Made by a program: the position numbers and the translations under genes. A DNA stretch of 64,000 nucleotides from Isurus oxyrinchus (taxonomy: Eukaryota), in the NCBI GenBank assembly GCA_026770705.1, contig JANJGN010000189.1, forward strand, positions 558,001 through 622,000, read 5' to 3'. How positions within the stretch are numbered: position 1 is the first letter of the stretch; every line of letters begins with the position of its first letter. Positions 8,536 to 52,323 of this stretch are shown here, piece by piece. A model generated the notes under the pieces. That model did not search any database, was not told where the DNA came from, and saw only the letters and a program-made list of their open reading frames with translations.

Positions 8536-8544
8536 AATCACTGG

Positions 8545-18761: not shown

Positions 18762-18902
18762 AACTTCCTCTTTTTGTCTCACAGTGACGCATCAGCCTTT
18801 TCTAATTTAATACACAGATGGATCAGCACAGGATGAGGTCATTCAGCCCAAGCAGAGCGTGTGGGCAGTTCCTCCCCAGGCGAGCAGTCGGACAGGTCCT
18901 GG
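18762..18902 (+). promoter_or_regulatory. Putative promoter and non-coding exon 1 of Siglec-like gene B
   Basis: PU.1/ETS box (reverse complement AAAAAGAGGAAGTT, 18762-18775); donor GTAAGT at 18903; block repeated at 29170 and 35326. Confidence 0.6.
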
Positions 18903-19335
18903 GTAAGTAACGGAACGATTGGAATTCACTTCCACCACCAACACCGTCCTTTGTTGATGTTGTGACTTTATAAAGACAGATTCCAATGATTGATGCCTTT
19001 GAAATATTTCTACTGATTATTGAGATCTGGGTGTGAGGCTCAAGTCTGTTGTACAGAACATCTTTCTAGCTCAAGGGATATGAGCGTGGGGACGTCCTGA
19101 GGTGGTGAAAGGTGCTATAGAAATGCAAGTCCTTCATTGTTTTTCTTTCTTAAAGCCTTGTAACTCTCTGCAGAGCACCTATCATCCCACAGAGAATCAA
19201 ATTAGTCTGTGAAGATATTGTCTAAAAGCAGTTCTGATCTCTCAAGAGCATTCGGACAAGAGGTGAAGTCTCATTAACTCCTTTCTCTTTCAGAACTTCA
19301 GAGTTAGAAGCTGAGGAAATATCTGGGAGTGGACA

Positions 19336-19375
19336 ATGATCGGGAAATCTTACTTCCTCCTGTCACTTCTCCAAG
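19336..19375 (+). CDS. Siglec-like gene B, signal-peptide exon (MIGKSYFLLSLLQ)
   Basis: Acceptor at 19293, ATG 19336, phase-1 donor GTAATA at 19376, in frame with the V exon. Confidence 0.85.
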
Positions 19376-20247
19376 GTAATACCATTGTCAGCTCGGACAG
19401 ACTTATGGTTAATAGTCTTTGTTAAAGATCATTCTTATTGAGCTCTGATAGGGAACTGATTCAGCAGTGATCCAGTGTACAAACTCACACCAAGTCCCAT
19501 TCAAACATCAGCCCTGTGCTCACTGATATACACTGACTCCCTGTCTGACAGCAGAATTGGTGGAGACCAGTGGTCTTGAAGGGTTGTAGGGGCTGGAGGA
19601 GTTTAAAGGGATAGGCAGGTTTGTAGCAGCGAGAGCAGAATCTTGAAATTCAGGTGCTGTCAGACGTTGGTCAGTGAGCGATGGGGAGTGATGGGTTGAG
19701 TAGAGAAGCAGGGATAAAAACTGGGGGATGAAGTCTATCCTAATGTTAGGTCTCCGATAGCAATGGCCTGAAATTTGTATCCTTTGCTGCCTTTATTCAA
19801 AATTTCCCATGAAGACAACACAGCAGCTCCTAGAATAGACAGGCTGTTCAGTGTCACACTTCCTGTCCATTCTCACCTTGCTAGATACTTCAATAAGGGA
19901 GCAAGATAACTGAAAGAGAGAAGGGAGGCAAAGCTGTCTGTGTGTAAAGGTGTCAAATATTCTGAGTTATCATGATTGTCTCTGATCTGCTGCAGAGTTT
20001 AAATTTCACAGAATCTGGGCACTTTGCAGCTCAGAGAGAGACCATTGCCTCACTGCCTGAAAGGGCGGTGGAAGCAGATTCAACAGGAACTTTCAGAAGG
20101 GGAACTGGATAAATTCTTGAAGGGAAATTTGCAGGAATGTGCGAAAGGTGTTGGAGAGGAATTGGGAAAGAGTCAGCACATGCACGATGAGTCACATGAG
20201 CTCCTCCTGTGTTGTATCAATCAACAATCAGACAGTTTAAGACCCTT

Positions 20248-21530
20248 ATCAGCAAATCTTCAGAATCCTGCTGAATCACAGATGTTTCAGAAGGACAGGG
20301 AACACAAGGTTTTTGGTATCAACACTTCATGTGGGGCCCAGTTCAGTTGGAACAAAAAAAATGACAACACCATCTTTGAAAGTCATGAACCAAACACAGC
20401 GGCACCTCCGACACATGCAGAGCTCAGGCTAGAGGCGCTTTGTTAGTGTGTTTCACAGTGTCAGCTGGAGTAGGGTCAGTGCTGATCTTGGGGACAAGTC
20501 AGTCTACAATGCTGCATCGGAATCAACAATACAACAATATGGGGTTTGGATCAGAAATAATCCCTTAGACAATGAGGATCCAAAGAGATTCCTTAGACAA
20601 TGAGGATCCAAAGAGATTCCTTAGACAATGAGGATCCAAAGAGATTCCTTAGACAATGAGAATCCATAGAGATTCCTTAGACAATGAGGATCCAAAGAGA
20701 TTCCTTATTCCATTGGTTGTCTAACTGGGGTCCATGATTTTCCAAGGGGTCCTTGGCAGAATCAAATTATCGAGCAATAGTGTGTAAAATACCGGAGAGA
20801 ACGGGAAAGGTGGGATCAATGGAAAACTGTTCACTCTGTTTACACTAATGGGAGTTAGTCTCAGTAATGGAGACCATGAAACTATCATCGATTGTCATAC
20901 ACACTCATCTGGTTCACTAATGGCCTTTAGGGAAGGAAATCTGCCATCTATATCTGGTCTGGCCTACATGTGACTCCAGACTCATAGCAACGTGGTTCCT
21001 CTGAAATGTCCGAGCAAACCATCCAGTTCTCACCATGCTAGAAACTTCAATAAGGGAGTAAGATAACTGAAAGAGAGAAGGAAGGTAAAGCTGCTCATGT
21101 GGATAGATGTCAAATATCCTGAGTGATCATGATTGTCTCTACTCTGCTACAGAGATTATGTCACGGGACATTAGAGATGGGCAGCAAATGCTGGCCTTGG
21201 CAGCGACGCCCACATCCCATGAATGAATACATTTACAAAATCTTATTACTTGGAAGGTGCAAGTGCAGGTTGTTATGATCCTTGAGCAGACCCTCTCAGC
21301 ACTGACCCTACTCCAGCAGACCCTGTGAAACACACTAACAAAGTGCCTCTAGCCTGAGCTCTGCATGTGTCGGAGGTGCCGCTGTGGTGGGTTCATGACT
21401 TTCAAAGATGGTGTTGTTTATTTGTTCAAACTGAACTGGGCCCCACACAAAACGCTGATACCAGAAACCTCTTGTTCCCTGTCCTTCTGAAATATCCGTG
21501 ACTTCAGCAGGATTCTGAAGAGTTGCTGAT
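20248..21530. repeat. Imperfect inverted repeat, arms 20248-20485 and 21296-21530
   Basis: Arms are reverse complements; opposite-strand ORFs share NTIFESHEPxTAAPPTHAELRLEALC. Confidence 0.9.
20563..20707. repeat. 28-bp tandem repeat, 5 copies
   Basis: ccttagacaatgaggatccaaagagatt x5, no spacers. Confidence 0.95.
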
Positions 21531-22399
21531 GGAGGAACAGACACCCAATTTTTTTGAAAATTTATAGTTAGGAACCAATAATATTTTGTTTCAAGTAGAC
21601 GAGGTTTGAGATATAAGACGCTTGCAAAGAGAATAAAGCTACAAGATTCCATGGATTTTAAACAAACAAAAATAAACTTGACTGCCCCAGTTCAGAAAGA
21701 TAAAATAATTCACAATATCCACCTTATACCCTAACATTCTGGATTAACATGAGCTCATGTGAATTAACAGGCAAACTGTGGTCTCACAGCCACATTACTC
21801 ATTAAATTGTAAACGCGACCAAGATAGAGCCCATGGATTTCACAACAACACACCCGGATATCAGTGAACACTGTCAGTCAACCAATCTCACTGAAACTCT
21901 GTTTCTCTCATGAGGGATTCCAATCTTCAACTTCGAAGATCTTGCCTTGGAATTCTCTCCAAAAGTCGCTTCAACTCGGATGGCCTCAGTGACGTTCCAC
22001 CTCACAGGGTTTCCATCTCTTCTCCTGAGGCTCCATTGCCCTGGATTCCCGACTATATACTCAAGCACCACTAGGTTTAGATGAAATGTTTTGATTGACT
22101 GGGTAGACAGAGAATGTTCCCTCTTGTGGGAAGGAGAATAACTAGAGGCCGAGTGATTGGTGATTCCTTAAACATTGAAGAGGGAATGAACACCAATCAG
22201 ATTGGCTAATCTGATTCAATCAGCTGTGTTGAAGAGCAGACAGGAATGTTAGGCTAATTAGTGATTCATGACGGTGATAATGGGGGGAGTTCTGAGGGCT
22301 CCTAATCCATTGTCCTGTCTTGTAAATCAGCACCGAATGGATCTCAATTAGTGCGTCTTGTAGACACTGTGTTGGGTAGAAGACTGGCTTCACTAAGGG

Positions 22400-22660
22400 G
22401 AAGCGGTAGCAGAGAGGTATTGTCACTGGGCTAGTATTCCAGAGACCAAGGGTGATGCTCTGGGGCCCTGGGTGTGAATTCCATCACGGCAGATGAATGG
22501 GATTAAAAAGCCTGGTTCACTGATCACCATAAGGGAAGGAAATCTGCGACCCTTACCCAGTGTGCCCTACATGTCACTCCAATCCCACCGCAATGTGGTT
22601 GACTATTAAATGCCTCTGATGGACATGGGATGGGTAATAAATCCCATGAATGAATAATTT
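22400..22660 (+). mobile_element. tRNA-derived SINE (degenerate)
   Basis: A/B-box-like head followed by agggaaggaaatctgc...gcaatgtggttgact core also seen at 20925 and 57020. Confidence 0.55.
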
Positions 22661-22888
22661 GAAAAAACTAAATAGAGTCCTGAGGACCAGGAGCCAAGGT
22701 AGAATGAACTTGTCCACTCCTGTGTCCAGGACTCTCATCGATCCATTGTGAAACCTTGGGGAGTTACTTGTGTGTCCTGTAGATGGTCCAAACTGCAGCC
22801 ACTGTGCCCCAGTGATGGAGGGAGTGGATATCAAGAATTATGGATCGAAAAAACATCCAGAGTTAAATATTGATTTTTCTCTCCCCAG

Positions 22889-23254
22889 TTGGACTGTCAC
22901 AAGAGTGGAAAGGTGATACTCCACGAGAGGTGACAGCGCAGGAAGGTTCGTGTGTACAGATTCCATGTCATTACAGTTATCCAGCACATTTGGACAGCCA
23001 ACCACGAGGTGGAGTCTGGTTTAATAATGAGGAACGGAGAAGATTGTCCATAGCCTTTCACTCCAAGGATCACCGTCACGAGTTACCACGGTTCCACCAT
23101 CGGACCCGGCTGTCTGGAGACCTGAAAGATGGCAACTGTTCCCTGATTATAAACAACATCAGACGGGAAGATGCAGGACCTTATTTTTTCAGAATAGAAT
23201 TTGACAATGGTCCGCGCTATAACTATTACCCTGTAACCCGGCTTCACATTTCTG
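22889..23254 (+). CDS. Siglec-like gene B, V-set sialic-acid-binding domain exon
   Basis: 366 nt, phase 1/1; EGSCVQIPC, E-strand Cys (GNCSL), EDAGPYFFRIE with the essential Arg. Confidence 0.95.
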
Positions 23255-24284
23255 GTAAGTGCTGTGTTATAATTACTCAACAATTCACATTCAACACTCA
23301 GTGGGAAATAACACAAACTGTGACGTTTACATATTAACACAAAACACAGCTTATTATAACACACTGTCTGATTCTCAATAACCTGGTGATAGCTTCCAGT
23401 TCAGTCCTAAAGCAACCTCTAATACTCACTTTAATATCAATGATTAAATGTATTGACTGTGTCCATCAATGTTATCAGGTTATCCACTCACATAGAACTC
23501 TCTAATCCCTATTTAAAAGTCTGGCAAATTGACAAAGTAAAGACTTGCATTTCTATAGCACCTTTCACCATGTACCAAATCACTTCACAGACAATGAAGA
23601 AATTCTTGAAGTATAGTCACTGTCTAACGTGGCAGTGAGTTTGTTCACAGGAAGCTCCCACAGAGAGCAATGGGATCAGTGACCCAGATCTCTGAGAGAA
23701 TGATGAGCCAGGGTTCCATGAGCTGTGGACTGCTCCATCACCCACACCCCAGTGTTGGCAATTCAAGGGTCTGGGAGTGAAAGTGTATTCAGCTCAGTGA
23801 CACATTCCCCACCAAGTTTGAAAATAGGAAAGTTGCTGCTGATTGTTGTTACCTCTCAGTTCCCATCTCATCCTTGGAAACCTGCTTTCAAAATACAAAA
23901 GCAAGTCTCACATTTCCATAGCGCCTTTCACCACCTCAGGACGATCCTAAACTGATTCACAGCCAATGAAGTGAAACTGTGACGTTTACATATTAACACA
24001 AAACACAGCTTATTATAACACAATGTCTGATTCTCAATAACCTGGTGATAGCTTCCAGTTCAGTCCTAAAGCAACATTTAAAACTCACTTTAATATCAAT
24101 GATTAAATGTATTCCACTCCCATCGATCTCTCGAATCGTGTCTAACAGTCTATCAGGATCGTTAAAACATCTCAGTTCTGATATCATCCTTGTAAAAGTG
24201 CTTTCTCTTGTGGGACTGTGGTTTCTATTTGAACTGATGCTTCACGTTATATTTCTCTAAAAGGATCCATTCTCTGTCTGTTAG

Positions 24285-24581
24285 ATTTCACAGATAAACC
24301 CACGATATTCCCTGCTGAAATTAATGCAGGAGAGCGTGTGGATGTAAGCTGCACCTTCAACATAACGTGCAGTGGAACAGCAGCACCTGTCTTATCCTGG
24401 GACATTCCCACTGACGTACCTGGATCAGTCTCAAACACTGTAACTCATCATGGTGTCACTCTGACCTATACTTCTGTTCTGACCCTGATCCCATCACTCA
24501 AACACCACAGACACAATCTCAGCTGCAGAGTGAGATATCCATCTGTTTCATCGGAGCGGACCCTCGTACTAACTGTGCAAG
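24285..24581 (+). CDS. Siglec-like gene B, C2-set domain 2 exon
   Basis: 297 nt, phase 1/1; DKPTI..VSCTFNITCSGTAAPVLSW...SVLTLIPSLKHH..LSCRV with the extra Cys typical of Siglec domain 2. Confidence 0.95.
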
Positions 24582-24704
24582 GTAAGAACAGACACCCTTC
24601 CATCTACATTAGCTAGAATGCTCTACATAGTACACTGCAAGATCCCACAACTGCATTGTGTTTAGCAACAAATCAATAGTCTTTAACTGATACAAATCCG
24701 CCTC

Positions 24705-25295
24705 TGACACTGCAGCAGTCCTTGAATACTGACTCTCCAACACTGCAGCACTCCCTCAGTACTGACCCTTTGACAGTGCAGCACTCCCTCAGTACTGACC
24801 CTTCAACAGTGCAGTGCTCCCTCAGTACTGACCCTCTGACAGTGCAGCACTCCCTCTGTACTGACCCTCTAACAGTGCAGCACTCCCTCAGTACTGACCC
24901 TTCGACAGTGCAGCACTCCCTCAGTACTGACCCTTCAACAGTGCAGTGCTCCCTCAGTACTGACCCTCCCACAGTTCAGCACCCCCTCAGTAATGACTCT
25001 TCGACAGTGCAGCACCCACTCAGTACTGACCTTCTGAGAGTGCAGCACATCCTCATTTCTGACCCTCCGACAGTGCAGCAACCCCTCTGTACTGACCATC
25101 AGACAGTGCAGCAGTCCCTATGTACTGAACCTCTGACAGTGCAGCACTCCCTCAGTACTGACTCTCTGACAGTGCAGCACTCCCTCAGTACTTACCCACC
25201 GACAGTACAGCACTCCCTCAGTACTGACCCTCTGACAGTGCAGCACTCCCTCAGTACTGACCCTCCCACAGTGCAGCACACCCTCAGTACTGAAC
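24705..25295. repeat. 33-bp SINE-derived minisatellite
   Basis: cagtgcagcactccctcagtactgaccctctga units. Confidence 0.95.
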
Positions 25296-25425
25296 TGAGG
25301 TGTCTGGCTGGATTATGGGCTTTGTGGTGAAAGAACCTATATTGATATCAAACCTTTCACATTCTCAGTGTCTTTCAAAGTGCTTCACAGTCAGTGTAAC
25401 TTAATTGATGTTTATTTGTTTTTAG

Positions 25426-25707
25426 ATGGACCACAGAATCTCTCAATTACTTCTCTTGATGTGATTAACGCTTCATCGATCAATATAATTGAGGGGAATT
25501 CTGCAGTGATAATCTGCTCTGTCGAGAGCTTCCCAGCTTCTAACCTGACGTGGCGACATCTTAATGTCCCAATGAACAGAACAAGTTCCAACAATGAGCT
25601 GTGGTTGGTGATTCCTCACGTTACATCCAGGGATACTGGAGAATATCTGTGTGTGGCAGAGAATGAACATGGAGCAGTGGAGGGATTCATAACCATCACT
25701 GTGGAAT
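25426..25707 (+). CDS. Siglec-like gene B, Ig C2/I-set domain 3 exon
   Basis: 282 nt, phase 1/1; EGNSAVIICSVESFPASNLTW...DTGEYLCVAENEHG. Confidence 0.95.
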
Positions 25708-25715
25708 GTGAGTTA

Positions 25716-25902
25716 NNNNNNNNNNNNNNNNNNNNNNNNNNNNNNNNNNNNNNNNNNNNNNNNNNNNNNNNNNNNNNNNNNNNNNNNNNNNNNNNNNNNN
25801 NNNNNNNNNNNNNNNNNNNNNNNNNNNNNNNNNNNNNNNNNNNNNNNNNNNNNNNNNNNNNNNNNNNNNNNNNNNNNNNNNNNNNNNNNNNNNNNNNNNN
25901 NN
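25716..25902. other. Assembly gap (Ns)
   Basis: Run of N in an intron. Confidence 1.
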
Positions 25903-26813
25903 GCACACAAACAAGCATTCATGTGCAATCCCACATGTGCACAGGTGTGTACACCTGCATGCACACACACAGAAGGAAACATACACAGAATCACACGTGT
26001 GCTTGCTCACACACACACAGACATGTGTGAGTTGTCTGTTCTCCCTGTGCTGCACTGGAGTGTTGCTCCAGATTCTGCTCTGAAACACTGATGACATCAG
26101 CTGAACAAGACCCTGTATTGGACGAGCAGCCCCCTGCACAGAGAATTGTAGGTTTATCACTCAATACCCCATTATTCTAAAGCAATTCCTCCACTGTCAA
26201 ATCCCTGTGAACATCCTGATGATGTGAAAGACACTTTCTTTTCTCCTAGCCCGACAGTGTCTCCTCTGGTGGAAGGCTGTAATTACAGCGTGACAGTTTA
26301 CATATCCACACGCAGCAAGAGCTGAGCAACACTCAGCTTGGGCTGAGAAATGACAAGTAACGTTCACACCACACAAGCACCAGGCAGTGATCATCTCCAA
26401 CAAGAGAGAATCTAACCATCTCCCCTTGATATTCAATCACTTTACCATCGCTGAATCCCCCACAATCAACATCCTGGGGGATGTTAACCAAACAACTAAC
26501 TGGACCGGCCATAAATACTGTGGCTACAGGAGCCGGTCAGAGGCTGGGAATTCTGTGGGGGTGAAAAACTCACCACCACCTCCTCAAGGGCAATTAGGGA
26601 TGGGTAATAAATGCTGGTCTAGATAGATACAGCCACTTCCCATGAATGTACAAAAAGAAAAACACCGGCAGTGACCATTATAAAAGTTGACATAGGAACT
26701 TAAAACAGGACAGAAACCTTGAAATGCACATAGGCACCAAATAGAGGGAGATGTATCATGGAGTCTTGCTGTGCACTGTGTTTGCTCACAATGAAACCTT
26801 TATTTGTATTTAG

Positions 26814-27095
26814 ATGCACCACGGAACCTATCAATTACTTCTCTTGGTGTGATTAACGCTTTATCGATCAATATAATTGAGGGGAATTCTGCAGTGATAA
26901 TCTGCTCTGTCGAGAGCTTCCCAGCTTCTAACCTGACGTGGCGACATCTTAATGTCCCAATGAACAGAACAAGTTCCAACAATGAGCTGTGGTTGGTGAT
27001 TCCTCACGTTACATCCAGGGACACTGGAGACTATCAGTGTGTGGCAGAGAATGAACATGGAGCAGTGGAGGGGTTCATAACCATCACTGTGGAAC
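26814..27095 (+). CDS. Siglec-like gene B, Ig domain 4 exon (near-identical to domain 3)
   Basis: 282 nt, phase 1/1; YAPRNL...DTGDYQCVAENEHG. Confidence 0.95.
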
Positions 27096-27129
27096 GTGAG
27101 TTACACAGAATTGAACATTCTGTTTTTAT

Positions 27130-28170
27130 TAGCTCATGGGATATGGGCATTGTTGACAAGGCCAGAAATTATTGCCCATCTGTAACTGCCCCTTGAGAAG
27201 GTGGTGGTGAGCTGCCTTCTTTAACTACTGCAGTCCATGTGGTGTAGGTACACCCACTGTGCTGTTAGGGAGGGAGTTCCATGATTTTGTCCCAGCGACG
27301 GTGAAGGTACGGCCGATATATTTCCAAATCTCATGGAAGACCAACACCACAAGTTCGCCTCCAAGTCACACACCACACTGACTTGGAACTGTCTTGGTGG
27401 AAGAGGTTAAGGGTTTGGAAGGTGCTGTCGAAGGAGCCTTGGTGAGTTGCTGCAGCACATTTTGTAGATGGTGCACACTGCGGCCATTGTGTGCCAGTGG
27501 TGGAGGGTATGAATGTTTATGCTGGTGGATGGGCTGTCGATCAAACAAGCTGCTCCTGGATGGTGTCGAGCTTCTTGAGTGTTGTTGGAGCTGCACTTAT
27601 TCAGGCAATTGGAGATTATTCCATCACACTCCTGACTTGTGCCTTGTCCGATGGTGGACAGGCTTTGGGGGGTCAGGAGTTGAATTACTCACCGCAGAGT
27701 TCCCAGCCTCTTACCCGCTCTTGTAGCCACATTATTTCCTGTTGCCGGGTTGTTGCCAGGGCCAATAGCCTTTGCTGTATCCAGTATCATCAGCTGATTC
27801 CTGATGTCACGTGGAGTCAATTGAATTGTCTGAAAGCTGACATCTGTGATGCTGGGACCCTCTGGAGGAGGCCGAGATGGAGCATCCACTCAGCACTTCT
27901 GGCTGAACGTGGTTGCCAATGCTTCAGCCTTGTCGTTTGCACTGATGTGCTGAGCTCCCCCATCGTTAAGGATGGGGATATTTGTGGAACATCCTCCTCC
28001 TGTTAGATCTTTAATTGTCCATCACCATTCATGACTGGATGTGGCAGGACTGCAGAGCTTAGATCTGACCCGTTGGTTGTGGGATCGCTTTGCTCTGTCT
28101 ATAGCATGTTGTTTCCGCTGTTTGGTGTGTATGTATTCCTGTGTGTCACCTCAGCAGCTTGGCACCTCTG
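27130..28170 (-). mobile_element. CR1/L2-group LINE fragments with internal deletions
   Basis: Same family as 12255-12695 and 55840-56930 (PSITDVSFQTIQLTPRDI...LDTAKA). Confidence 0.8.
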
Positions 28171-28360: not shown

Positions 28361-28457
28361 GGCGAGATTCCAATGAATGGAAAGCAGGATTGCTTGGAGC
28401 TGGAATCTGTTTGAGTGTTGGACTGAGTGGATTCTTCATCTTCAAGTGTGTGAGAAA
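28361..28457 (+). CDS. Siglec-like gene B, transmembrane exon (RRDSNEWKAGLLGAGICLSVGLSGFFIFKCVRK)
   Basis: Acceptor ttttacag, phase 1 in, phase-2 donor GTAAGT at 28458; uncharged hydrophobic core then basic stop-transfer residues. Confidence 0.85.
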
Positions 28458-29169
28458 GTAAGTGTGAAGGTTTAATTGGTTGATTTCAAACATTTTTTCT
28501 TCAACCTTCTCTCCTTATAGAAAGAACTTGCATTTCTATAGCACCTTTTACAATCCAAAACCCTTCACAGCCCCTGAAGAGTTTTGATGTTCACCAACTG
28601 TTTAACATCTCATCCACCTTTCACTGTTTCACAACTCAGTCCTGTAACTGGCAGTGTTGACCTGGACCATAAGATACCTTGTGACCTCCTGAGGATGTGA
28701 AAGGTGCTATATAAATGAAAACCTTTCTTTTGTTAGTGAATGCAATCTCTTTCCTTTTTCCATGTTTCATTCACTCTCTCTTATCTCCACTAATGCTCTC
28801 CTTCTCATTTTCTCTCTCATTCACTCTCTCTCTTATCTCCACTAATGCTCTCCTTCTCATTCTCTCTCTCATTCACTCTCTCTCCTATCTCCATTAATGC
28901 TCTCCTTCTCATTCTCTCTCTCATCCTCTTACACAATGTTCAGTATCTCACATTTTTAAGGAGCGCTGAGCAACATCTGCTCCTTCAGAAGATCCACCTC
29001 AACATCTGGACTGAGCAGTGAATTGAAAGTCGCTCACCAACTGCTCAGCTTTACACAGGAATCACGTCACAGAGTCAGGACACAAAGGGTTAACAGTTTG
29101 CTTACAACACAACACTCAGGCCCTACGTTTCAGTGAAACGGTTTTCACAATTGTTCCCCAATTCCTGAT

Positions 29170-29465
29170 TTGACTCACAGAGACACATCCACCCTTTCTC
29201 ATTAAATACACAGAGGGAGCAGCACAGGAAGAGGTCATTCAGCCCAAGCAGAGCGTGTGGGCAGTTCCTCCCCAGGCGAGCAGTCGGACAGGTACTGGGT
29301 AAGTAACGGAACGATTGGAATTCACTTCCACCACCAACACCGTCCTTTGTTGATGTTGTGACTTTATAAAGACAGATTGCAATGATTGATGCCTTTGAAA
29401 GATTTCTACTGATTATTGAGATCTGGGTGTGAGGCTCAAGTCTGTTGTACAGAACATCTTTCTGG
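29170..29465 (+). promoter_or_regulatory. Third copy of the promoter/exon-1 block, inside gene B's post-TM intron
   Basis: Near-identical to 18775-19068 and 35340-35630; donor GTAAGT at 29299; similarity ends at a CR1 fragment. Confidence 0.75.
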
Positions 29466-29809: not shown

Positions 29810-29914
29810 AAGAGAGGCGAGGGGAAAGCAGGAATCAAATCGAGCCACCGTGTTGATGAATATCGAGGTCCTGTTTATGAAAACTGTGAGCGTGGTTGGG
29901 CTTTGAGGAATCAG
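29810..29914 (+). CDS. Siglec-like gene B, cytoplasmic exon (KRGEGKAGIKSSHRVDEYRGPVYENCERGWALRNQ)
   Basis: Acceptor ctattacag, 105 nt, phase 0/0, donor GTGAGT; homologous to the terminal exon at 31556. Confidence 0.75.
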
Positions 29915-31555: not shown

Positions 31556-31672
31556 AAGAAAGATGAGAAGGATCTGGAAATGAAATCTAACCGCGGAGTC
31601 AATCCTGATACAGATGATGATCTTTACGCAAACTGTGATTTTGCTGAGGATTCTGTTTATGGGAATTTATAA
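31556..31672 (+). CDS. Siglec-like gene B, terminal cytoplasmic exon (KKDEKDLEMKSNRGVNPDTDDDLYANCDFAEDSVYGNL-stop)
   Basis: Acceptor ctattacag, phase 0, two Tyr motifs, TAA 31670-31672; AATAAA at 32443 and about 32611. Confidence 0.8.
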   Translation, partial: KKDEKDLEMKSNRGVNPDTDDDLYANCDFAEDSVYGNL

Positions 31673-33509
31673 ACTGAGCAAGAATGAGACACACACAGTG
31701 TGGGGAGAATACAGAACGGGAGAATCATTCAAAACTCCAATTTACCTTCCTAATATCCACAGGAACTCACTCACAGGAAATAGATTTAAACCTCTTGTTA
31801 CAATCTGATGGAATTTCTTCGGAATGATCTATCCAGGATGATTGTCTGTGGGTTTCAATTCGAACATCCTCCTTCAGAATTGTCCCTCACTGTTGGAAAC
31901 ATCCTTCTCTCCATTCTGATTGTAAATGTCTTTAGATATCGTTCGATGATGTACCAGGACAGAACGGACAAATTCAATCCCGTGTCCGTGATTATGAGTT
32001 AATTTTCATTCTGTTATTCACCTTGCTGTCTGTCAGTGTTTAGAATATTCATCAGCCAGTGTAGACTTCAGGAAATGCAGCATCGGTGGATAATTGGAGC
32101 AGAGGAGATTGTTAAAATTTACTCACCATTTTGTAGTCAAATGTATTTTCAGAAATATATTTGGATTTAACACTTCATCGTTAAACAGCGAAACGAACAA
32201 CAATCTGGGAAACAGGGAAACAATTTGATTGGAGATTTGAGAAATTCTCTGCAGCTTAGAGGATAACATGTGCTACAGTGCCAGCAATGATGGGAGTTCA
32301 TCAGTACAACGTGACATGTTTACATTGATATAGCCAATGAACAACTGGAAATTATGATGTGAAAAATTGGTTGCAGGTTTATCTTCTTCAATATGTCATG
32401 GATGGATGAGACAGCTTTGATAACAGAATGAGATACAGCTGCAATAAACCACAATTTTAGTCTTTCACACTTGGAGAGTACAATTAGCATCCATCCTGAA
32501 GGCTGAGTGGATGGGTGGACTGTGCGATGTGTTACAGATTACAGAGACCAACATCCTTGATCCTGGTTCCGCTCTGTGTTTGATGAGATGCTTGGATCAA
32601 AGATTGGGAAAATAAATAATCCTCCTGCATTGATCTGTATCTGGTCTCTCCATCTGTCAATGTCCTGAGGACAGAATTGGGTTCCATGTCCAAAATCAGA
32701 CACATGCATTAGTTTAGTTGTGACCTAACCAGAGCTTTATAAATGTTCAGCATATCCTCCCTGTGTTTGTTCTCAATCCCACAATTTATGAAAAGCTAAT
32801 TCTTTCCATCAGCACAAACAACAATTTCCAAGCGGACTCCCATCAGCAGACAGAGTGCAATGAAACATCGGCATGCCTGCTTCTTAATGTACGGAGAGAA
32901 ACCTGGAACGAGAGATTCTCCTTCTTCTCCTCAGCAAGCTGAAACTTTTCCTTATACCTGGTGCTCCCCAGTCCTGCTATGTGGACACATCATAACCACG
33001 GCATTGTCTGGCTGTGTGCAGCCAACATGGTCAAATAGGAATGAACAGAAATGTGACGTTGCTAAACTCTGTTCTCTGATTGGAATGTGCTTTCTGAATG
33101 CTGCACCTTTTTCATGCTGCGATAGATTGTAAGAAGCATTTGGGTTATGAATAAAATTACATTGATTAACACAAGTGATTAAAATGCTCAGCCTTTTCTG
33201 TAGATATTTATAGATTAAAATTCTTAGTTTGAAGCCAAATTTTTGGCTCAAAGACATTACTTCATGTTGTCACATTTTCTCTATCATACGAATTCCTGTG
33301 CCCGTCTTTATAATAGAAATATCCGATGTAAACATGTCACATTGTAGTTTCACACTCCTGTCAGTGGTGGTGCCATTCCAAAGCTGTCTTGCTGCACCGA
33401 CACAGTGAGAAATATTCTCGACGTGTACATGATGTTGTTGTTACACAGACATCAGGCGGAACCTTGGGCAGTGCCTAGAATGCACTTAGAACAGTGCAGA
33501 CCACACTCA

Positions 33510-35325: not shown

Positions 35326-35466
35326 CACTTCCTCATTTTGTCTCACAGTGACACATCCACCCTTTCTAATTAAACACACAGACGGAGCAGCACAGGAAGA
35401 GGTCATTCATCCCAAGCAGAGCGTGTGGGCAGTTCCTCCCCAGGCGAGCAGTCGGACAGGTCCTGG
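35326..35466 (+). promoter_or_regulatory. Putative promoter and non-coding exon 1 of Siglec-like gene C
   Basis: PU.1/ETS box (reverse complement AAAATGAGGAAGTG, 35326-35339); donor GTAAGT at 35467. Confidence 0.6.
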
Positions 35467-35916
35467 GTAAGTAACGGAACGATTGGAATTCACTTCCACC
35501 ACCAACACCGTCCTTTGTTGATGTTGTGACTTTTTTAAGACAGATTCCAATGATTGATGCATTTGAAAGATTTCTACTGATTATTGAGATCAGGGTGTGA
35601 GACTCAAGTCTGTTGTACAGAACATCTTTCTAGCTCAAGGGATGAGGGAAGTGCAGAGACATGAGCTTTGGGACGTCTTGAGGTGGTGAAAGGTGCTATA
35701 GAAATGCAAATCCTTTAATGTTTTTCATTCTTAAAGCCTTGTAACTCTCTGCAGAGCACCTATCATCCCACAGAGAATCAAATTAGTCTGTAAAGACATT
35801 GTCCAAAAACAGTTCTGATCTCTTGAGAGCTGTCGGACAAGAGGTGAGGTCTCATTAACTCCTTTCTCTTTCAGAGTTTGAGAGTCAGAAGCTTATGAAG
35901 TATCTGGGAGTGGACA

Positions 35917-35956
35917 ATGATCGGGAAATCCTACTTCCTCCTGTCACTTCTCCAAG
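35917..35956 (+). pseudogene. Siglec-like gene C, signal-peptide exon with mutated donor
   Basis: MIGKSYFLLSLLQ as in gene B, but the donor reads ATAATA at 35957 instead of GTAATA. Confidence 0.8.
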
Positions 35957-41250: not shown

Positions 41251-41628
41251 TTGGACTGTCACAAGAGTGGAAAGGTGACACTCCACGAGCGTTGACAGCA
41301 CAGGAAGGTTCGTGTGCACAGATTCCATGTCATTACAGTTATCCATCAGATTTGGTAAAGAAACGACATGTTGGAATCTGGTATATGAGAAGGTACATAC
41401 GGAACAAATATTCTAAATGGTCTGTAGCCTTTCACTCCAAGGATCACAGTCACGAGTTACCACAGTTCCACCATCGGAGCCGACTGTCTGGAGACCTGAA
41501 AGATGGCGACTGTTCCCTGATTATTAACAACATCAGATGGGAAGATGCCGGACGTTATTTGTTCACAATAAAATTTGACAATGGTCCGAGCCATAACTAT
41601 TACCCTGAAACCCAGCTTCACGTTTCTG
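41251..41628 (+). CDS. Siglec-like gene C, V-set exon a (intact frame, essential Arg replaced by Thr)
   Basis: 378 nt, phase 1/1; EGSCAQIPC...GDCSL...EDAGRYLFTIKF. Confidence 0.9.
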
Positions 41629-43790: not shown

Positions 43791-43924
43791 TGTTGCCCTT
43801 TGACCCTCGACCCCAGATTGATTCTTATTTTTGAGGGAATGTACAACCTCCTTAGATTTCTGACCAAAATGTCATTTGATTATTTTTATTGAGCGAATGC
43901 CAAGCCCCGATACCGAGCGAGAGC

Positions 43925-44290
43925 CTCCTCATTTGCTGAGTTTAAGGTGATGAGTCAGCCCCTTAGTCCGTAGAGGGGATTCTCCTCGGTAATGTGCAGC
44001 CTTGTTTGTGTCTCTCCACAAGCGCATGAGGGGTTTGTACAGCGGCTGCAGCGCTGGAGGGGGTCTGCACAGGGGTCCTGAACTGTCCTGAGCCGGTTTT
44101 AGCAAGGACCACTCTGGCCTTGGCAGCTGAAAGCCAGCCATTGGACAGACGGGGCCTGTCACAAGGAGCCTGTTAGTCACTCCCCACCGTGTTTCCTGTG
44201 CTCGGATCCAGACAATGTTGGCTGGTGGATCTGGCTCAGGAAGGGTCCTCCCCATGGGACCCCCAGATGGAAGGTGGGTCGAGCGGGTCA
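43925..44290 (-). mobile_element. Non-LTR retrotransposon C-terminal fragment (Vingi/I-group-like)
   Basis: GFQLPRPEWSLL followed, after a frameshift, by NRLRT...PSCACGETQTRLHI zinc-finger-like tail. Confidence 0.5.
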
Positions 44291-44344
44291 GTCACTTGCA
44301 TGTTTATTCTGCAGCTTTAATATTTTAAGATGGTAAGAATGTAG

Positions 44345-45133
44345 GAACATAAGAAATAGGAGCAGCAGAAGGCCATTCGGCCCCTCGAGCCTGCCCTCGC
44401 TGATCTGGTTGTGGCCTTAACTCCATTTTCCTGCCTGTCCCCCAAACTCTTGACTCCCTTGTCAATCAAAATCCTGCCTCACTCAGCCTTGAGTCTATTC
44501 AATGGCCCAGCCTCCACTGCTCTCTGGGGAAGAGAATTCCACAGGCTAGCGCCCCTCTGAGAGAGGAAATTCCTCCTCATCTCAGTCTTAAATGGGAGAG
44601 CCCTCATTCCGAAACTGTGCTCCCTGGTTCTAGATTCCCCCACGAGGGGGAAACATCCTCCCAGCATCCACCCTGTCAAGCCCCCTCGGAATCGGATATG
44701 TTTCAATAAGGTCACCCCTCATTCTTCTAAATTCCAATGGATACAGGCCCAACCTGCTCAACATTTCCTCACAGGACAAACCCTTTAATCCCAGGAATCA
44801 GCCCAGTGAAGCTTCTCTGAACTGCCTGTACACAATGATCCTGTTACAATCTCACTAATGCCCTGTGCAGCTGTTGCAAGACTTCCCTCCTTTTATACTC
44901 CATCCCTTTGCAATAAAGGCCAACATTCCACTTGCCTTCCTCATTCCATGGTTTTCCTGAATGCTGACTTTCTGTGATTCATGTACAAGGACACCCAGAT
45001 CCCTCTGTACTGCATTCTGCAGCCTGTCTCCAGTTAAATAATATTCTGTTTTTCTATTCTTCCTGCCAAAATAATTTGTTGCCATTCTCCTCAGTATTGA
45101 CCATCCCCCCAATTCAGCCTCATCTGTAAATTT
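44345..45133 (-). mobile_element. CR1 LINE 3' fragment
   Basis: FKTEMRRNFLSQR..LWNSLPQRAVEA, QRDLGVLVHESQK. Confidence 0.9.
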
Positions 45134-45190
45134 TGAGTCTAGTGGATCCACAAACCATCCAGAGATAAATATTGAGATTTCTCTCCCCAG

Positions 45191-45558
45191 TTGGACTGTC
45201 ACAAGAGTGGAAAGGTGACACTCCACGAGAGGTGACAGCTCAGGAAGGTTCGTGTGTACAGATTCCATGTCATTACAGTTATCCATCGTGTCTGGTAAAC
45301 CAACCGCGAGGTGGACTCTGGTTTAATAATGAGAAACAGATTCCCTGGGCTCCCATTGCCTTTCACTCCAAGGATCACAGTCACGAGTTACCACGGTTCC
45401 ACCATCGGACCGGCTGTCTGGAGACCTGAAAGATGGTGACTGTTCCCTGATTATAAACAACATCACACGGGAAGATGCAGGACCTTATTATTTCAGAATA
45501 GAATTTGACAATGGTCCGAGCCATAACTATTACCCTGTAACCCAGCTTCACGTTTCTG
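45191..45558 (+). pseudogene. Siglec-like gene C, V-set exon b (1-bp deletion, Arg retained)
   Basis: 368 nt; cggaccgg versus cggacccgg in gene B at about 45410 gives a stop at 45427-45429; downstream frame reads EDAGPYYFRIEF. Confidence 0.9.
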
Positions 45559-46873
45559 GTAAGTGCTGTGTTATAATTACTCAACAATTCACATCCAACA
45601 CTCAATGGGAAATAACACAAACTGTGACGTTTACACATTAACACAAAACACAGTTTATTATAACACACTGTCTGATTCTCAATAACCTAGTGATAGCTTC
45701 CAGTTCAGTCCTAAAGCAACCTCTAATACTCACTTTAATATCAATGATTAAATATATTGACTGTGTCCATCAATGTTATCAGGATATCCACTCCCATCAG
45801 TCTCCCTAATGCTTTTGAAATGTCTAACAATTTGACAAAAGAAGGATGTGCATTCCTATAGCGCCTTACACCACCTCAGCAAACTTCAAATCACTTCACA
45901 GACAATGAAGAAATTCTTGAAGTATAGTCACTGTCTAACGTGGCAGTGAGTTTGTGCACAGGAAGCTCCCACAGAGGGCAATGGGATCAGTGACCCAGAT
46001 CTCTGAGAGAATGATGAGCCAGGGTTCCATGAGCTGTGGGCTGCTCCATCACCCACACCCCGGTGTTGTCAATTCAAGGTTCTGGGAGTGAAAGTGTATT
46101 CAGCTCAGTGACACATTCCCCACCAAGTTTGAAAATAGGAAAGTTGCTGCTGATTGTTGTTACCTCTCAGTTCCCATCTCATCCTTGGAAACCTGCTTTC
46201 AAAATACAAAAGCAAGTCTCACATTTCCATAGCGCCTTTCACCACCTCAGGACGATCCTAAATCAATTCACAGCCAATGAAGTGATTCTTGAAGCACACA
46301 TTCTCCCCAGTCTCTGGGTAAAGAAGTTTCTCCTGAATTCCCCATTGGATTTATTAGTGAGGATGTTATATTGTCAGCCTCTGGTTTGGTTCATTGTGAG
46401 GAGTGGAAACACTCTCTCCATGTCTACTCGATCAAAACCTTTCATTACTTCAAAGGTCAAATGAGGTCACCCCTCAACCTTCTCTGTTCAAGAGAACAGA
46501 GACCCAGCCTGTTCAGCCTCTCCTGATAGGTAAAGCCTCACATTGCGGAGATCATCCTTGTGAAGCTTTTTACCACCCTCTCCAGTGTCTCCATATCCTT
46601 TTCCAAATGCTGAGTCTGTTCTCCCCGAGCTGTGAGCTGTTCCTCCACCCTCACCAAGTCTGGTCAAATCAAGGGTCACTGAGTGAGAGTGTATTAATCT
46701 GAGTGACAGAGATTCAACAAGTGTAAAAATAGACAATTCTTTAATGATCATTGTAACCTCTCAGTTCTGATATCTTCCTTTTAAAAGTGCTTTCTCGTGT
46801 GGGACTGTGGTTTCTATTTGAACTGATGCTTCACGTTATATTTCTCTAAAAGGATCCATTCTCTGTGTGTTTG

Positions 46874-47170
46874 ATTTCACAGATAAACCCACGATATTCC
46901 CTGCTGAAATTATTGCAGGAAAGCGTGTGGATGTAAGCTGCACCTTCAACACAACGTGCAATGGAACAGCAGCACCTGTCTTAACCTGGGACACTCCCAC
47001 TGACGTACCTGGATCAGTCTCAAACACTGTAACTCAGCATGGTGTCACTCTGACCTATACTTCTGTTCTGACCCTGATCCCATCACTCAAACACCACGGA
47101 CACACTCTCAGCTGCAGAGTGAGATATCCATCTGTTTCATCGAAGCGGACCCTCGTACTGACTGTGCTAT
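46874..47170 (+). CDS. Siglec-like gene C, C2-set domain 2 exon
   Basis: Paralog of 24285-24581; the acceptor AG is TG here, with an in-frame CAG acceptor 9 nt downstream (start 46883); donor GTAAGT at 47171. Confidence 0.85.
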
Positions 47171-47349
47171 GTAAGTACAAACACCCTTCATTCTACATTA
47201 GTTGGAATAGTATCAAATGTGCACAGCAAGCTCCCACATACTGCACTTTGTTTATAAACAAACCATTGGTATTTAACTGGTAAAAAGTGAGCCCTGACAG
47301 GCAGTACATCCTTACTACTGACTCTCCGATAGTGCATCATGGACTCATA

Positions 47350-49080
47350 GACTCATAGACACATAGACAGAAGGAGGCCATTTAGCCCATCATGTCCATG
47401 CTGGTCAGCAACTCCCTCCCCAAGTGCATCACCTCATATTTTTCCAGGTTGAATTCCATTTGCGTCGTGATCATTTCCCCTTTATATAAGTCCAATTCAT
47501 TTATATACACCACAAACAGCAAGTGCCCCAGCACTGAGCCCTGTGGAACCCCACTGGAAACAGACATCCAGTCACAGAAACATCCCTCCACCATCACCCT
47601 CTGCTTCCTGCCTCAGCCAATATTGGATCCAACGTGCCACTTTGCCTTGGATCCCATGGGCTCTTACTTTCTTGGCCTCTCTGCCAAGAGGCACCTTATC
47701 AAAAGCCTTCCTCAGCCCATGTCGACCACATCAAAGGCATTACTCTCATCAACACTCCTGGTGACCTCCTCAAAAGATTTGATCAGGTTTGTCAAACATG
47801 ACCTTCCCTTAACAAATCCATGCTGAATATCCCAGATTAATCCTTGTCTCTCCCAGTGCAGATTCATTCTGTCCTTCAGAATTCTTACTAGTAACTTCCT
47901 CACCACCGAGGTTAGACTGACTGGCCTGTAATTTCCTGATCTATCCCTTCCTCCCTTTTTTAATAATGGGACAACATTAGCCATCCTCCAGTCCTCTGGC
48001 ACCTCACCTGTGGCCAGAGAGGATTTGAAAATTACTGCCAGGGCCCCTGATATCTCTTCCCTTTCCTCCCTCAACAGCTTGGATTCATCTCATCGGGGCT
48101 TGTGGATTTATCCACTTTTCAGGTCGCTAAACCCACTAGTACCTCCTCTCTCTGTGTTAATTTCCTCTCATATTTCACTGCCCTCCACCCTGATGTTATA
48201 CCTGCATCATCCTTTTCCATTGTGAAGACTGATGCAAAGTATTCATTGAGGACTGTACCCACGTCTTCCAGGTCCACACACACATTACCTCGATGGTCCC
48301 TAATCAGCCCCACTCTTTCCCGAATTATTCTGCTGCTCTTTACATATTTAAAAAACCCCTCTGGGTTTTGCTTTATTCTACTCACCAGTGCTTTCTCATG
48401 CACTCTCTTATCTTTCCTAATGTACTTTTTCAGTTCCCATCTGCACTATTTATACTCCTCTAGGGACTCTGCTGTATTGAGCCCTCAGTATCTGCCATAA
48501 GCTTCTCTTTTTTCTAAATCTAAACCTTTATGTTCCTTGTCTTCCAGGGTTCTCCAGACTTGGTCTCCCTCTTTGTCTTTACAGGAAGATATCTGCTCTG
48601 TACTCTCGCTATTCCCTCCTTGAATGCCTCCCACTGCTCTGACACAGTTTTATCTGCAAAGAGCTTCTCCCAGTCCACTTGGGCCAAATCATATCTCATC
48701 TTAGTAAAATTAGCCTTTCCCCAGTTTAGAATTTTTATTCCCAGCCCAAACTTATCCTTCTCCATAACTGTCCTAAATCCAATTGAGTTACAGTCACTAT
48801 CTCCCCTACTGATACGCTTTCCACCTTCCCCGGCGCTTTTCCATATATTAGGTCCAGAACTGTCCCCTCCCTTGTTGAGCTTTCTATGCACAGGCTAAAA
48901 ATCTTCTCCTGGATGCAACTTCAGAATTTTTCTCCCTCCCTACCTTGCTCACTAAAGCTGTCCCAGTTAATATTTGGGTAGTTAAAATCCCTGAGTATTA
49001 CTGCTTTATTATTCTTGCACATCTCTGAAATGTGATCACATGTTGGATTGTCCATCTCTCCCTGACTGTTTGTTGGTTTT
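47350..49080 (-). mobile_element. CR1 LINE ORF2 (endonuclease-RT, internally deleted)
   Basis: GEVPEDWRMANVVPL...NYRPVSLTS...QHGFVKGRSCLTNL, SGVPQGSVLG. Confidence 0.95.
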
Positions 49081-49151
49081 ATATCTTGAGTCTATGAGTT
49101 CACTGGTTGAGTAAATTCGAATTGCACTCCTTCATATACACTTGTTAGTTG

Positions 49152-49358
49152 ATAAAAACAAAAAAACTGCGGATGCTGGAAATCCAAAACAAAAACAGAA
49201 TTACCTGGAAAAACTCAGCAGGTCTGGCAGCATCGGCGGAGAAGAAAAGAGTTGACGTTTCGAGTCCTCATGACCTCAGTTCTGTCGAAGGGTCATGAGG
49301 ACTCGAAACATCAACTCTTTTCTTCTCCCCCGAAGCTGCCAGACCTGTTGAGTTATTC
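49152..49358. mobile_element. Penelope-type palindromic element with hammerhead-like core
   Basis: About 64-bp inverted arms (49212-49275, 49291-49354); possible TSD ttagttgat/ttagctgat. Confidence 0.65.
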
Positions 49359-49629
49359 TTAGCTGATGCTCGCTATCAATAACCAAGAGAGACCTACATT
49401 AGAACAAGCTGATTATTTATTGTAACAGAGGGCAGAGCACTAAATCCTTGCATGCTCCCACAACCACCTCCAGCTCTAGACTTACAGTTAACCAGTGGCC
49501 CACACTGTCCAGTGATTGGTCAGTACTGTCACATGGTTTATCCACTTGTATTCTCTTAAAGGTACCTGGCACTCCACATTATCACAGGAGGCCTATAGTA
49601 CACACATAACAGCGTGTTTGCCTCCTCAG

Positions 49630-50035
49630 CACTGACCCTTCTACAGTGCAGCACTCCCTCATTACTGTCTCTCTAATAGTGTAATGATCCCTCAGTAGTG
49701 CTCCTCCAACATTGCACTGGTCAATCAGAACTGACGCTCTGACTGTGCAGTTTTACCTCAGCAGTAACCCTCCTACAGTGCAGTGCTCCCACAGTACTGT
49801 CCCTCCTACAGTGCAGCACTCCCTCAGGACTGACCCTCTGACAATGCAGCACTCCCTCAGTACTGAACCTCTGGCAGTGCAGCACTCCCTCAGTACTGAC
49901 TCTCTGACAGTGCAGCACTCCCTCAGTACTGACCCTCTGACAGTGCAGCACTCCCTCAGTACTGACTCTCTGACAGTGCAGCACTCCCTCAGTACTGACC
50001 CTCTGACAGTGCAGCACGCCCTCAATACTGAACTG
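49630..50035. repeat. 33-bp SINE-derived minisatellite
   Basis: Position equivalent to 24705-25295 in gene B. Confidence 0.9.
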
Positions 50036-50163
50036 AAGTGTCTGCCTGGATTACGGGCTATGTGGTGAAAGAACCTACATTGACATCACACCTTTCACAT
50101 TCTCAGTGTCTTTCAAAGTGCTTCACAGTCAGTCTAAGTTAACTGATCTGTATTTGTTTTTAG

Positions 50164-50445
50164 ATGCACCACGGAATCTCTCAATTACTTCTCCAGATAT
50201 GATTAACGCTTCATCAATCAGTATAATTGAGTGGAATTCTGCAGTGATAATCTGCTCTGTCGAGAGCTCCCCAGCTTCTAACCTGATGTGGCGACATCTT
50301 AATGTCCCAATGAACAGAACAAGTTCCAACAATGAGCTGTGGTTGGTGATTCCTCACGTTACATCCAGGGATACTGGAGAATATCAGTGTGTGGCAGAGA
50401 ATGAACATGGAGCAGTGGAGGGATTCATAACCATCACTGTGGAAT
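50164..50445 (+). CDS. Siglec-like gene C, Ig domain 3 exon
   Basis: 282 nt, phase 1/1; YAPRNL..AVIICSVESSPASNLMW..DTGEYQCVAENEHG. Confidence 0.9.
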
Positions 50446-52150
50446 GTGAGTTACACAGACTTTAATATTTCTCTCATCTCCGAACACATATACTCAGATG
50501 CTCTCCCACGCACACACACACACAAGCACTCACAAATGTACAAACCCAAAGTGCATGCACACACACAATCCCACACTCATGAGCACACAGAAAGACACAC
50601 TCACACACAAACACAGTAGTACACACTTCCCTGTGAGTTACCTGACCTCCCTCAGTACTGCACTGGAGAGTTCTCCTGGATTCTGGGATATGTGTTCCCA
50701 TTCATATTTATCGAAGAATATCCAAATTACAAAGTCTATTCCAGAAACTCACATGCACAAAGATTCCAACAGATACTCCCCACCTCTCCGTGTCTCTCTC
50801 TCCTCCTTTAAGAAGCTTCCTAATCCCGAACTCTTGCCTGCCCTAACTCCTCCTTATCATGCCCTGTGTCAAATTTTTTGTGTATCTGAGAGAAAGGGAG
50901 AGATAAGGAAGTTTAGGAAGGGATTTCCTGTTAGTGAAGAGCTTACTTCTTTTTCTCACCTTTCCAGTGTTCAGTTTTGCCATCATGTCCAATGACCCTG
51001 TTTATAATGGGGGCATCCTATGTAAACGTCACACTGTCTTTACATCCTCCCACCAGTGGTGGCACTGTGGTGCTTAAGCTTGCACCTCCCAGCTTTTCAG
51101 CCAACTTCACTTCACAATTTGCGACACATGCTGTAAGGTCATCAAAATTAACATATATCAAATGGTAGATTTGATAATACAGTTTATTGAAAGGTTCATC
51201 CGCGCTCTGGGAAGGGTTTACACTCTCCAGGAAGCAAAAATAGGCTGGATGTTGGAGAGTTCATCTTTTCCCAGAGAGTAGGGATCCTCGGGAATGTGCT
51301 GTCAGTGGGTGTGGTGGTTGCTGTCTCTCTGTTGCCTTCAAGAGGGATCTGGAGTGGTTACTAACTCGGGGAGAGATCATGGAAGCGGAGAATGGTACAG
51401 CACAGGAGGAGGCCATTCAGCCCATTGAGCCTGTGCCAGGTCTTTCAATGTTCTATCCAATCAGATCCACTAACCACCACACCACTTTGCCCCCATCTTC
51501 TTCCTTCAAGTGTTTATCCAATTTCCCTTTTGAAAGTTCCTATTGAATCTGCTTCCACTGCCCTTTCAGGCAGCACCTTCCAGATCACAACAACTCGCTC
51601 TGTCAAAACAAATTCTCCTCATCTCCCCCTCCGGTTCGTCAATCTGTGTCCCTCTGGTTACCGACCCTCCTGCCCCTTAAATACATCGATACTGTTCACC
51701 TCAACCACTCCCTGTGGGAGCGAGTTCCACATTCTCCCCTCTCTCTGGGTAAAGATTGGAACTGTTTATTAAGTGGGGCGTGTAAGTCCGTGGGGGAGTC
51801 CATCTCGATCCTGCCCGATTCGCACACGCGTCCGAGATGGATTTCCACCCTGCACTAAACGTTTCCAGAATTTTCTACAGCACAATCCTGTACACAGCGA
51901 TGGAGAGAAACATTGGACAGGGAGTCCAACAGCACAATGATCCATTCTCACCAATGTTCCACGCTAAGGGGAAAGTTCCGATTGTCCACTCTTAGAGTGT
52001 TTACAATGAAAACATTCATTCCACATTGAATCCCAGTGGATGGGTCAATATTACAGCAAATGTTGCAATGATATGAAGCTTGATTGTTCAGCCAGAGTGA
52101 GAGATTGAAAGCGGAGAGTCAGTGATGATTTCTTTCTGTGTGTTCTCTAG

Positions 52151-52323
52151 ACAGTGGAGGAGAGATCCTGATCCTGGGAATACGAGCTGTGATTTTCCTT
52201 GTGGCTGTGGTTATCACTATCTTCTGGAGTCTGTGTCTGGGAGAGACAAACAGTGAAAGGAAGTCGACAGACTGTTTGAAGCTTTGTACAGCAACAATCT
52301 GGTCAGTCAGTGCGGACAAATAA
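52151..52323 (+). CDS. Siglec-like gene C, TM plus short tail exon with intramembrane Arg
   Basis: Acceptor ttctctag, phase 1; YSGGEILILGIRAVIFLVAVVITIFWSLCLGETNSERKSTDCLKLCTATIWSVSADK-stop. Confidence 0.75.

Follow-up and report, generated by a model that had tools for sequence, protein, structure and literature searches.

We focus here on two Siglec-like receptor genes, B and C, which lie in a 64,000-nucleotide (nt) stretch of the genome of the shark Isurus oxyrinchus (assembly GCA_026770705.1, contig JANJGN010000189.1, positions 558,001 to 622,000; hereafter the window), and on the gene family to which they belong. A first-pass annotation of the window had read them as a paired receptor system, in which one ectodomain is joined either to an uncharged transmembrane (TM) segment followed by a tyrosine-motif tail (gene B) or to a TM segment that carries an arginine (gene C). 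B and C are members of a large family cluster and not a single pair, and gene C is a pseudogene. The best explanation overall is that this is a cluster of shark Siglec-like receptors whose Arg-anchored members are probably activating receptors, acting via an ITAM adaptor (ITAM for immunoreceptor tyrosine-based activation motif), most likely FcR-gamma or CD3-zeta.

In this scheme, near-identical V and C2 ectodomain exons come with any of three kinds of anchor, each with its own tail. In members of the first kind, the TM Arg would pair with the Asp pair of the adaptor dimer and lead to activation. Members of the other two, whose tails bear either ITIM-like motifs (ITIM for immunoreceptor tyrosine-based inhibitory motif) or other Tyr motifs, would damp or tune signalling. 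The V domains are expected to bind sialic acid. Unequal crossing-over and gene conversion would hold the ectodomains alike, and with ectodomains so alike, ligands that exploit the inhibitory receptors would trigger the activating ones as well. The genes of the Arg-anchored members would undergo faster birth and death.

A family with three classes of membrane anchor

The family was annotated with a blast-and-phase script in 1.264 Mb of genomic sequence from four contigs, picked around known matches. This sample contains 54 TM units, which fall into class R (Arg-bearing TM and short tail; 25 units), class B (the gene-B type; 13 units) and class I (ITIM-like tail; 16 units). Genome searches, with 40 of 229 candidates scored for the R exon and 40 of 336 for the gene B TM exon, led to the same contigs. 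A protein-level search with the R exon, in which 150 of 340 candidates were scored, gave 144 matches, and a count by hand put the R exons among these at about 114, spread over 15 contigs. Intact paralogs of the gene C TM exon do exist: in the sample they make up 18 of 25 R exons, and their tail stops 12 residues past the TM Trp. In most copies an intron begins 22 nt after the R-exon stop, and under the general 50-nt rule R transcripts should therefore escape decay.

Relatedness of the anchors was judged by local alignment score against 500 shuffles. The class I TM is 77% like that of class B, and the two are related (score 119, with no shuffle as high). The TM exons of genes B and C are unrelated, just as the first-pass annotation had noted (score 33 vs 32.7 +/- 4.9 in shuffles, 231 of 500 as high). 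The class I tail has the motifs LxYAN(I/P) and TEYAQI, which resemble ITIMs and immunoreceptor tyrosine-based switch motifs (ITSMs), and class I appears to be a more canonical inhibitory partner than class B.

A leader exon is in reach of 40 of the 54 TM units (21 R, 9 B and 10 I). The leader, at least one V exon, the TM and the tail are all open in 8 of these R genes, 6 of the B and 9 of the I genes; all full-length exons are open in 5 of 21 R genes, 3 B and 6 I genes, and one of the five R genes is possibly two fused genes. TM exons of intact R genes lie, for example, at C150:420179 and C189:475362. Breakage is commoner among R genes than among I and B genes taken together (8/21 vs 15/19 open, Fisher p=0.012). 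One R gene has seven open V exons in tandem (G000:C189:686758-713004, L087-L090), and in many R genes a dead C2b exon, truncated at its 5' end, still precedes the TM exon.

The layout of the predicted proteins is that of Siglecs, with a V-set domain at the N-terminus, C2-set domains after it and a type I TM, and the best solved relatives of a shark R protein are CD33 (1e-26), MAG (2e-24) and Siglec-5. Of the 47 open V exons assigned to genes, 40 have the essential Arg of the F strand (YxFR), which aligns with YFFR of CD33 (17/20 in R, 11/11 in B and 12/16 in I genes); gene B has it and the first V exon of gene C does not. With R members set against I and B members of alike ectodomain, the family counts by its sequences as a paired receptor system. 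The activating/inhibitory design proposed for B and C is supported at the level of the family. The two genes themselves are not a functional pair, since C is dead, and class I offers the better candidate for the inhibitory side.

In contigs of runs guessed to be RNA, none of which is on record as such (X1, X2, X4, X5, X6), GT..AG joints were found between leader and V exon in 2 of 4 runs, between V and C2a in all 4, between tail exons 2 and 3 in 3, and between the R exon and a 3' exon in 3. A single contig of 850 nt (X5, record 18) contains C2a, an intact R exon and the 3' exon, and the C2b-to-R join is present in an annotated catshark protein (P0026). Contigs of all four runs carry a base that the second V exon of gene C lacks, so these contigs come from paralogs or relatives and not from gene C. 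The gene C joint 50445|52151 is not among the 15 joints listed (there are 374 further ones), and joints from the 5' block to the leader and from C2b to the class B TM are likewise absent from the joints listed, which are a minority of the total.

These data bear on the idea that the R exon lies outside functional genes, as a passenger that decays after being copied along with a repeated segment. Gene C and 13 of the 21 sampled R genes are broken, and the R-exon copies are 95-100% identical, introns included, as such a passenger would be. The spliced contig, the annotated proteins of seven other species and the intact genes of the sample speak against it; splicing and cross-species conservation largely refute a passenger, which we give hardly any probability.

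The Arg-bearing TM exon in other sharks and other receptors

Eight of 100 elasmobranch proteins found with the gene B V domain end in an R anchor (from great white shark and two catsharks), and searches with the anchor itself added proteins of bamboo, epaulette and whale shark and of smooth-hound. All 26 database proteins that were picked by a pattern with a wildcard in place of the Arg have this residue (seven species of three shark orders, 10 of the rows being great-white-shark near-copies), and it is present at 28 of 30 fetched loci and in 24 of 25 sampled exons. In the two deviating fetched exons (L016 and L027) Gln replaces Arg, which makes them natural controls. The core around the Arg, ILGIRA.IF, is invariant over three orders and three ectodomain families, and its flanks vary. 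The Arg lies in the outer half of the TM; in 24 of 26 proteins it is followed by 18 uncharged residues, and in 19 of 26 it is preceded by 10. No Tyr follows it in 25 of 26, and TM and short tail are encoded by one exon.

In carpet sharks, CD22/sialoadhesin-like proteins likewise finish with a homologous exon, as do SLAM-like proteins in three sharks (P0102-P0108, P0110, P0121 and P0122 for the two groups together). One SLAM/CD2-like gene of the I. oxyrinchus genome has it too (L184, G000:C21:89446582-89447621, TM exon at C21:89447484), in the same acceptor context; 35 kb upstream of this gene lies a related SLAM-like Ig exon. The shark SLAM-like family has both Arg-TM and Tyr/ITSM-tailed members. 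A search of 1.84 billion representative proteins at E 0.001 gave 10 matches to the R anchor, none from a named non-galeomorph, for a query of 45 residues that has little reach; P0109, an unnamed low-complexity row of the anchor search, looks like a false match. The R-TM peptide had no PDB match at E 10.

Since the R exon was found only in galeomorph sharks and is common to shark SLAM-like genes, an origin independent of mammalian activating Siglecs is likely. A broader proposal, to which we give somewhat less than an even chance, is that one portable activating TM exon of galeomorph sharks was shuffled onto CD33-like, CD22/sialoadhesin-like and SLAM-like receptors. With more than 100 Siglec genes carrying it here, this would be the largest paired-Siglec array and hold the first FcR-gamma/CD3-zeta Siglecs, independent of mammalian Siglec-14/16.

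It could also be that R proteins are non-signalling decoys or uptake receptors, with the Arg serving only topology or helix pairing. Their tail is short and without Tyr, no constraint is visible among the R-exon copies of this genome, and other short-tailed relatives in sharks and rays have no TM charge (P0011, P0084, P0091). To hold an Arg within the membrane is costly unless it has a partner, which speaks against decoys, as do the invariance of the Arg face over orders and ectodomain families and the same split between Arg TM and ITSM tail in the SLAM-like family. We consider such decoys very unlikely.

Choice of adaptor

That the R receptors are activating through some adaptor is highly probable. 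Coupling through gamma/zeta is itself probable, and coupling through FcR-gamma alone has about an even chance. The genome contains FcR-gamma-like TM exons at two places (L182 and L183, on C1723 and C1648; best PDB match E 2e-10) and a CD3-zeta-like TM exon (L181, on C18). The shark gamma and zeta TMs have 15 uncharged residues after their Asp, compared with 18 after the Arg of the R anchor. CD89, NKp30 and NKp46 couple to gamma/zeta by an Arg placed in the upper half of their TM, and the partners of DAP12 have a central Lys (PMC13107469). The depth of 18 vs 15 residues fits the gamma/zeta rule, and a central TM Lys is absent from R anchors. The FcR-gamma coupling that had first been suggested is plausible: the outer position of the Arg, the length of the uncharged stretch after it and the presence of the FcR-gamma exon agree with it, but the lack of an NxxR motif and the equal candidacy of CD3-zeta under the same rule do not. 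A complex prediction for the R-TM peptide with two shark FcR-gamma TMs (score 0.14 vs a mark of 0.34) has no bearing either way, and genome profile searches for DAP10 (PF07213) and ITAM (PF02189) gave blanks that are uninformative, with no DAP10 or DAP12 gene located.

Alternatively, R receptors could be activating via DAP12 or DAP10, as are mammalian activating Siglecs. All activating Siglecs described in the accessible parts of three sources use DAP12 (PMC13358205, PMC13233462, PMC4042635), and the absence of NxxR would suit this route, as would the 10 uncharged residues before the Arg, which could place it deeper than in CD89. With no central Lys and with a depth that suits the gamma/zeta rule, coupling to DAP12 or DAP10 seems unlikely.

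Several points nevertheless weigh against gamma/zeta-coupled activating receptors as the overall explanation. Siglec-14 has a TM Arg and yet couples to DAP12, and NKG2D uses an Arg with DAP10. The NxxR motif, which defines the FcR-gamma-coupled TM1 module in the portion of a source available (PMC2413239), is absent, position -3 being Leu in 26 of 26 proteins. In addition to the high share of broken R genes, the gene counts may contain haplotype duplicates and assembly errors, and the transcript contigs come from runs guessed to be RNA. The ratio of nonsynonymous to synonymous differences (pN/pS) is 1.63 among nine distinct R exons of this genome with few differences, which gives no sign of within-genome constraint. 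Moreover, on the V tree of this genome the class labels keep some clustering (none of 500 shuffles gave as low a value), so the V exons do not shuffle freely.

Exchange of V domains among the classes

In that tree, built from the 47 open V exons assigned to genes, the R label requires nine changes, and R is monophyletic in 0 of 200 bootstraps; the approximately unbiased test rejects its monophyly (p=3e-6). V exons of R genes reach 99.2% identity with those of I genes. Across species (70 rows with few columns, bootstrap not settled), the V tree follows shark order, with 13 changes vs 38.6 shuffled (0/200), more closely than TM class (21 vs 26.9) or the R label alone (10 vs 12.0, 49/500), and catshark R and I V domains form one clade (100/99). 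This pattern is that of concerted evolution of the V domains. The C2a tree is poorly resolved (2 of 29 branches starred). The V exons have a pN/pS of 0.71, and windows of pN/pS gave no clear case of positive selection on them.

Genes B and C

The nine coding exons of gene B (Table 1) give an open 556-aa frame of an intact Siglec-like receptor. Gene C has a dead leader donor, a dead C2a acceptor and two frameshifts. Between the two genes identity is 94.6% over 295 nt in the 5' block, 97.5% in the leader, 95.6% in C2a and 96.1% in C2b; the gene B V exon is 90.5% identical to the second V exon of gene C (V2) and 84.7% to the first (V1). The common leader, V and C2 exons first reported are borne out by these values. 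The common promoter is a different matter, as the block so named is a tail-exon copy and a putative promoter only. In gene B it (18773-19067) is 95.3% identical to 29169-29463, the block that holds tail exon 1, and 60 of 61 sampled leaders have such a copy of the first cytoplasmic exon of class B about 0.4 kb upstream. Selection may have turned this block to use as a promoter or a 5' exon. Three sampled genes have the order B-type TM, tail-exon copy, leader, as expected if tail exon and 5' block crossed over, and they look like fusions through this homology. A model of gene B without the phase-bridging tail exon was rejected; that exon sits inside the supposed promoter copy (29214-29298).

Table 1. 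Features of genes B and C in the window (positions of the window)
Feature	Position	Strand	Remarks
Gene B 5' block (first read as promoter)	18773..19067	+	copy of the first tail-exon block of B, ~0.4 kb upstream of leader
Gene B leader exon, coding part	19336..19375	+	GT donor, phase 1; leader-V joint GT..AG in X1, X6 contigs
Gene B V-set exon	22889..23254	+	essential Arg (YFFR); Pfam V-set + Ig_CD22
Gene B C2a exon	24285..24581	+	V-to-C2a joint in 4/4 runs
Gene B C2b exon	25426..25707	+	
Gene B second C2b exon	26814..27095	+	
Gene B uncharged TM exon	28361..28457	+	phase 1 to 2
Gene B tail exon 1	29214..29298	+	phase 2 to 0; like tail of basking-shark P0037
Gene B tail exon 2	29810..29914	+	EYRG, VYENC; joined to exon 3 in X1, X2, X6
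Gene B tail exon 3	31556..31672	+	LYANC, SVYGNL, stop
Gene C 5' block	35337..35631	+	same tail-exon-derived sequence
Gene C leader exon	35917..35956	+	donor dead: AT in place of GT at 35957
Gene C V1 exon	41251..41628	+	open; essential Arg absent (YLFT)
Gene C V2 exon	45191..45558	+	1-bp deletion near 45409, frameshift
Gene C C2a exon	46874..47170	+	acceptor dead: TG in place of AG, 46872-46873
Gene C C2b exon	50164..50445	+	open
Gene C Arg-TM exon	52151..52301	+	Arg codon 52183-52185; stop of unspliced frame at 52323
3' exon of R-type genes	53021..53410	+	untranslated in intact paralogs; GT..AG joint (52300-53020) in X1, X4, X5

The uncharged TM of gene B is followed by Tyr-motif tail exons, as had been seen, and its tail matches that of a basking-shark protein (P0037, 557 aa). 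Because this tail combines two YxN motifs with the terminal SVYGNL, a permissive form of SxYxxL, the role of gene B may not be purely inhibitory. An R-type 3' exon block also lies 3' of gene B (32707-33432 vs 52915-53642, 93% over 729 nt), which is the case for this gene alone among the 13 sampled B genes. A part of the block, 169 nt, is 79% like the 3' untranslated region of I-type genes, a hint that R genes derived from I genes.

The Arg of gene C was correctly recognised at the outset. Position 52151 directly follows a polypyrimidine-AG, in phase 1, and the frame that starts there is the most hydrophobic of nine AG-preceded candidates in the window (KD19 2.95). The gene C TM exon differs from most paralogs by a 12-bp deletion and a 1-bp insertion, and the tail of about 30 aa once ascribed to it is a product of that insertion, the intact paralogs having a 12-aa tail. 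Nor does the exon end at 52323 in spliced RNA, since the donor at 52301|52302 joins 53021. An assembly error was rejected for the TM frameshift, the insertion being found at 6 of 30 fetched loci, and for the TG acceptor of C2a, a lesion that recurs in the paralog at C52:540772; the V2 deletion, taken alone, could be such an error. In the sampled regions four copies have the TM insertion, and in the three with a leader the leader is broken.

On either side of genes B and C lies an inverted duplicate of about 98% identity (window 6955-10872 and 60212-64000). I-type tail exons with ITIM-like motifs are found at 11426-11671, 12809-12934 and 14359-14604, with the last exon duplicated, as is frequent in I genes, and with no TM exon upstream within the window. 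A divergent, truncated V-type exon (1880-2190), of which the sample has 15 copies at 97-100% in 1.26 Mb, often in opposite orientations around I-type remnants, is followed at about 2394-3300 by what are presumably LTR-retroelement (long terminal repeat) remnants.

Comparison with known receptor systems

No account of shark activating Siglecs was found in the literature searched, most subscription papers and supplements lying outside the search. Databases annotate the shark proteins only as Siglec-like, and the available text of the whale-shark genome paper names Siglecs once, as an ancestral family. A 2014 survey reported that sharks have no FcR-gamma (PMC4016189); the FcR-gamma TM exon is present in the genome studied here. 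If the explanation given here is true, activating/inhibitory Siglec pairing would exist in the oldest jawed-vertebrate lineage, reached via a different part (an Arg-TM exon common to SLAM-like genes) and at a scale far above that of primates. The array would offer a direct test of the rule by which the choice of adaptor depends on what the basic TM residue is and how deep it sits, and would also test whether activating Siglecs serve as counter-traps for microbes that mimic sialic acid.

The closest likeness is to primate Siglec-5/14 and Siglec-11/16, in which near-identical V/C2 ectodomains are joined to an ITIM tail or to a charged TM with a short tail, under concerted evolution and with frequent null activating genes (accessible parts of PMC13358205, PMC6288428 and PMC5701461; see also those of PMC13233462, PMC4042635, PMC6829431 and PMC8198044). 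The null alleles of human SIGLEC14/16 parallel the breakage of R genes (PMC6288428, as far as available). Unlike the two human pairs, the shark has more than 100 R exons and three tail classes, its TM exon occurs in non-Siglec receptors as well, and its adaptor is likely to be gamma/zeta and not DAP12. With the NxxR-TM receptors (LILRA2, PIR-A, NKp46, GPVI, OSCAR, CD89 and TM1 of Xenopus XFL) the R members have in common an Arg in the outer half, a TM and short tail in one exon, and an expanded paired family with module shuffling (PMC2413239, in part), whereas they lack NxxR and carry a Siglec-type V-set ectodomain in place of C2 domains of the leukocyte receptor complex (LRC) or FcR kind. Finally, they share with shark SLAM-like and CD22/sialoadhesin-like receptors a homologous TM exon of the same acceptor context and phase, although the ectodomains are unrelated or distant and the SLAM-like gene of this genome lies on another contig.

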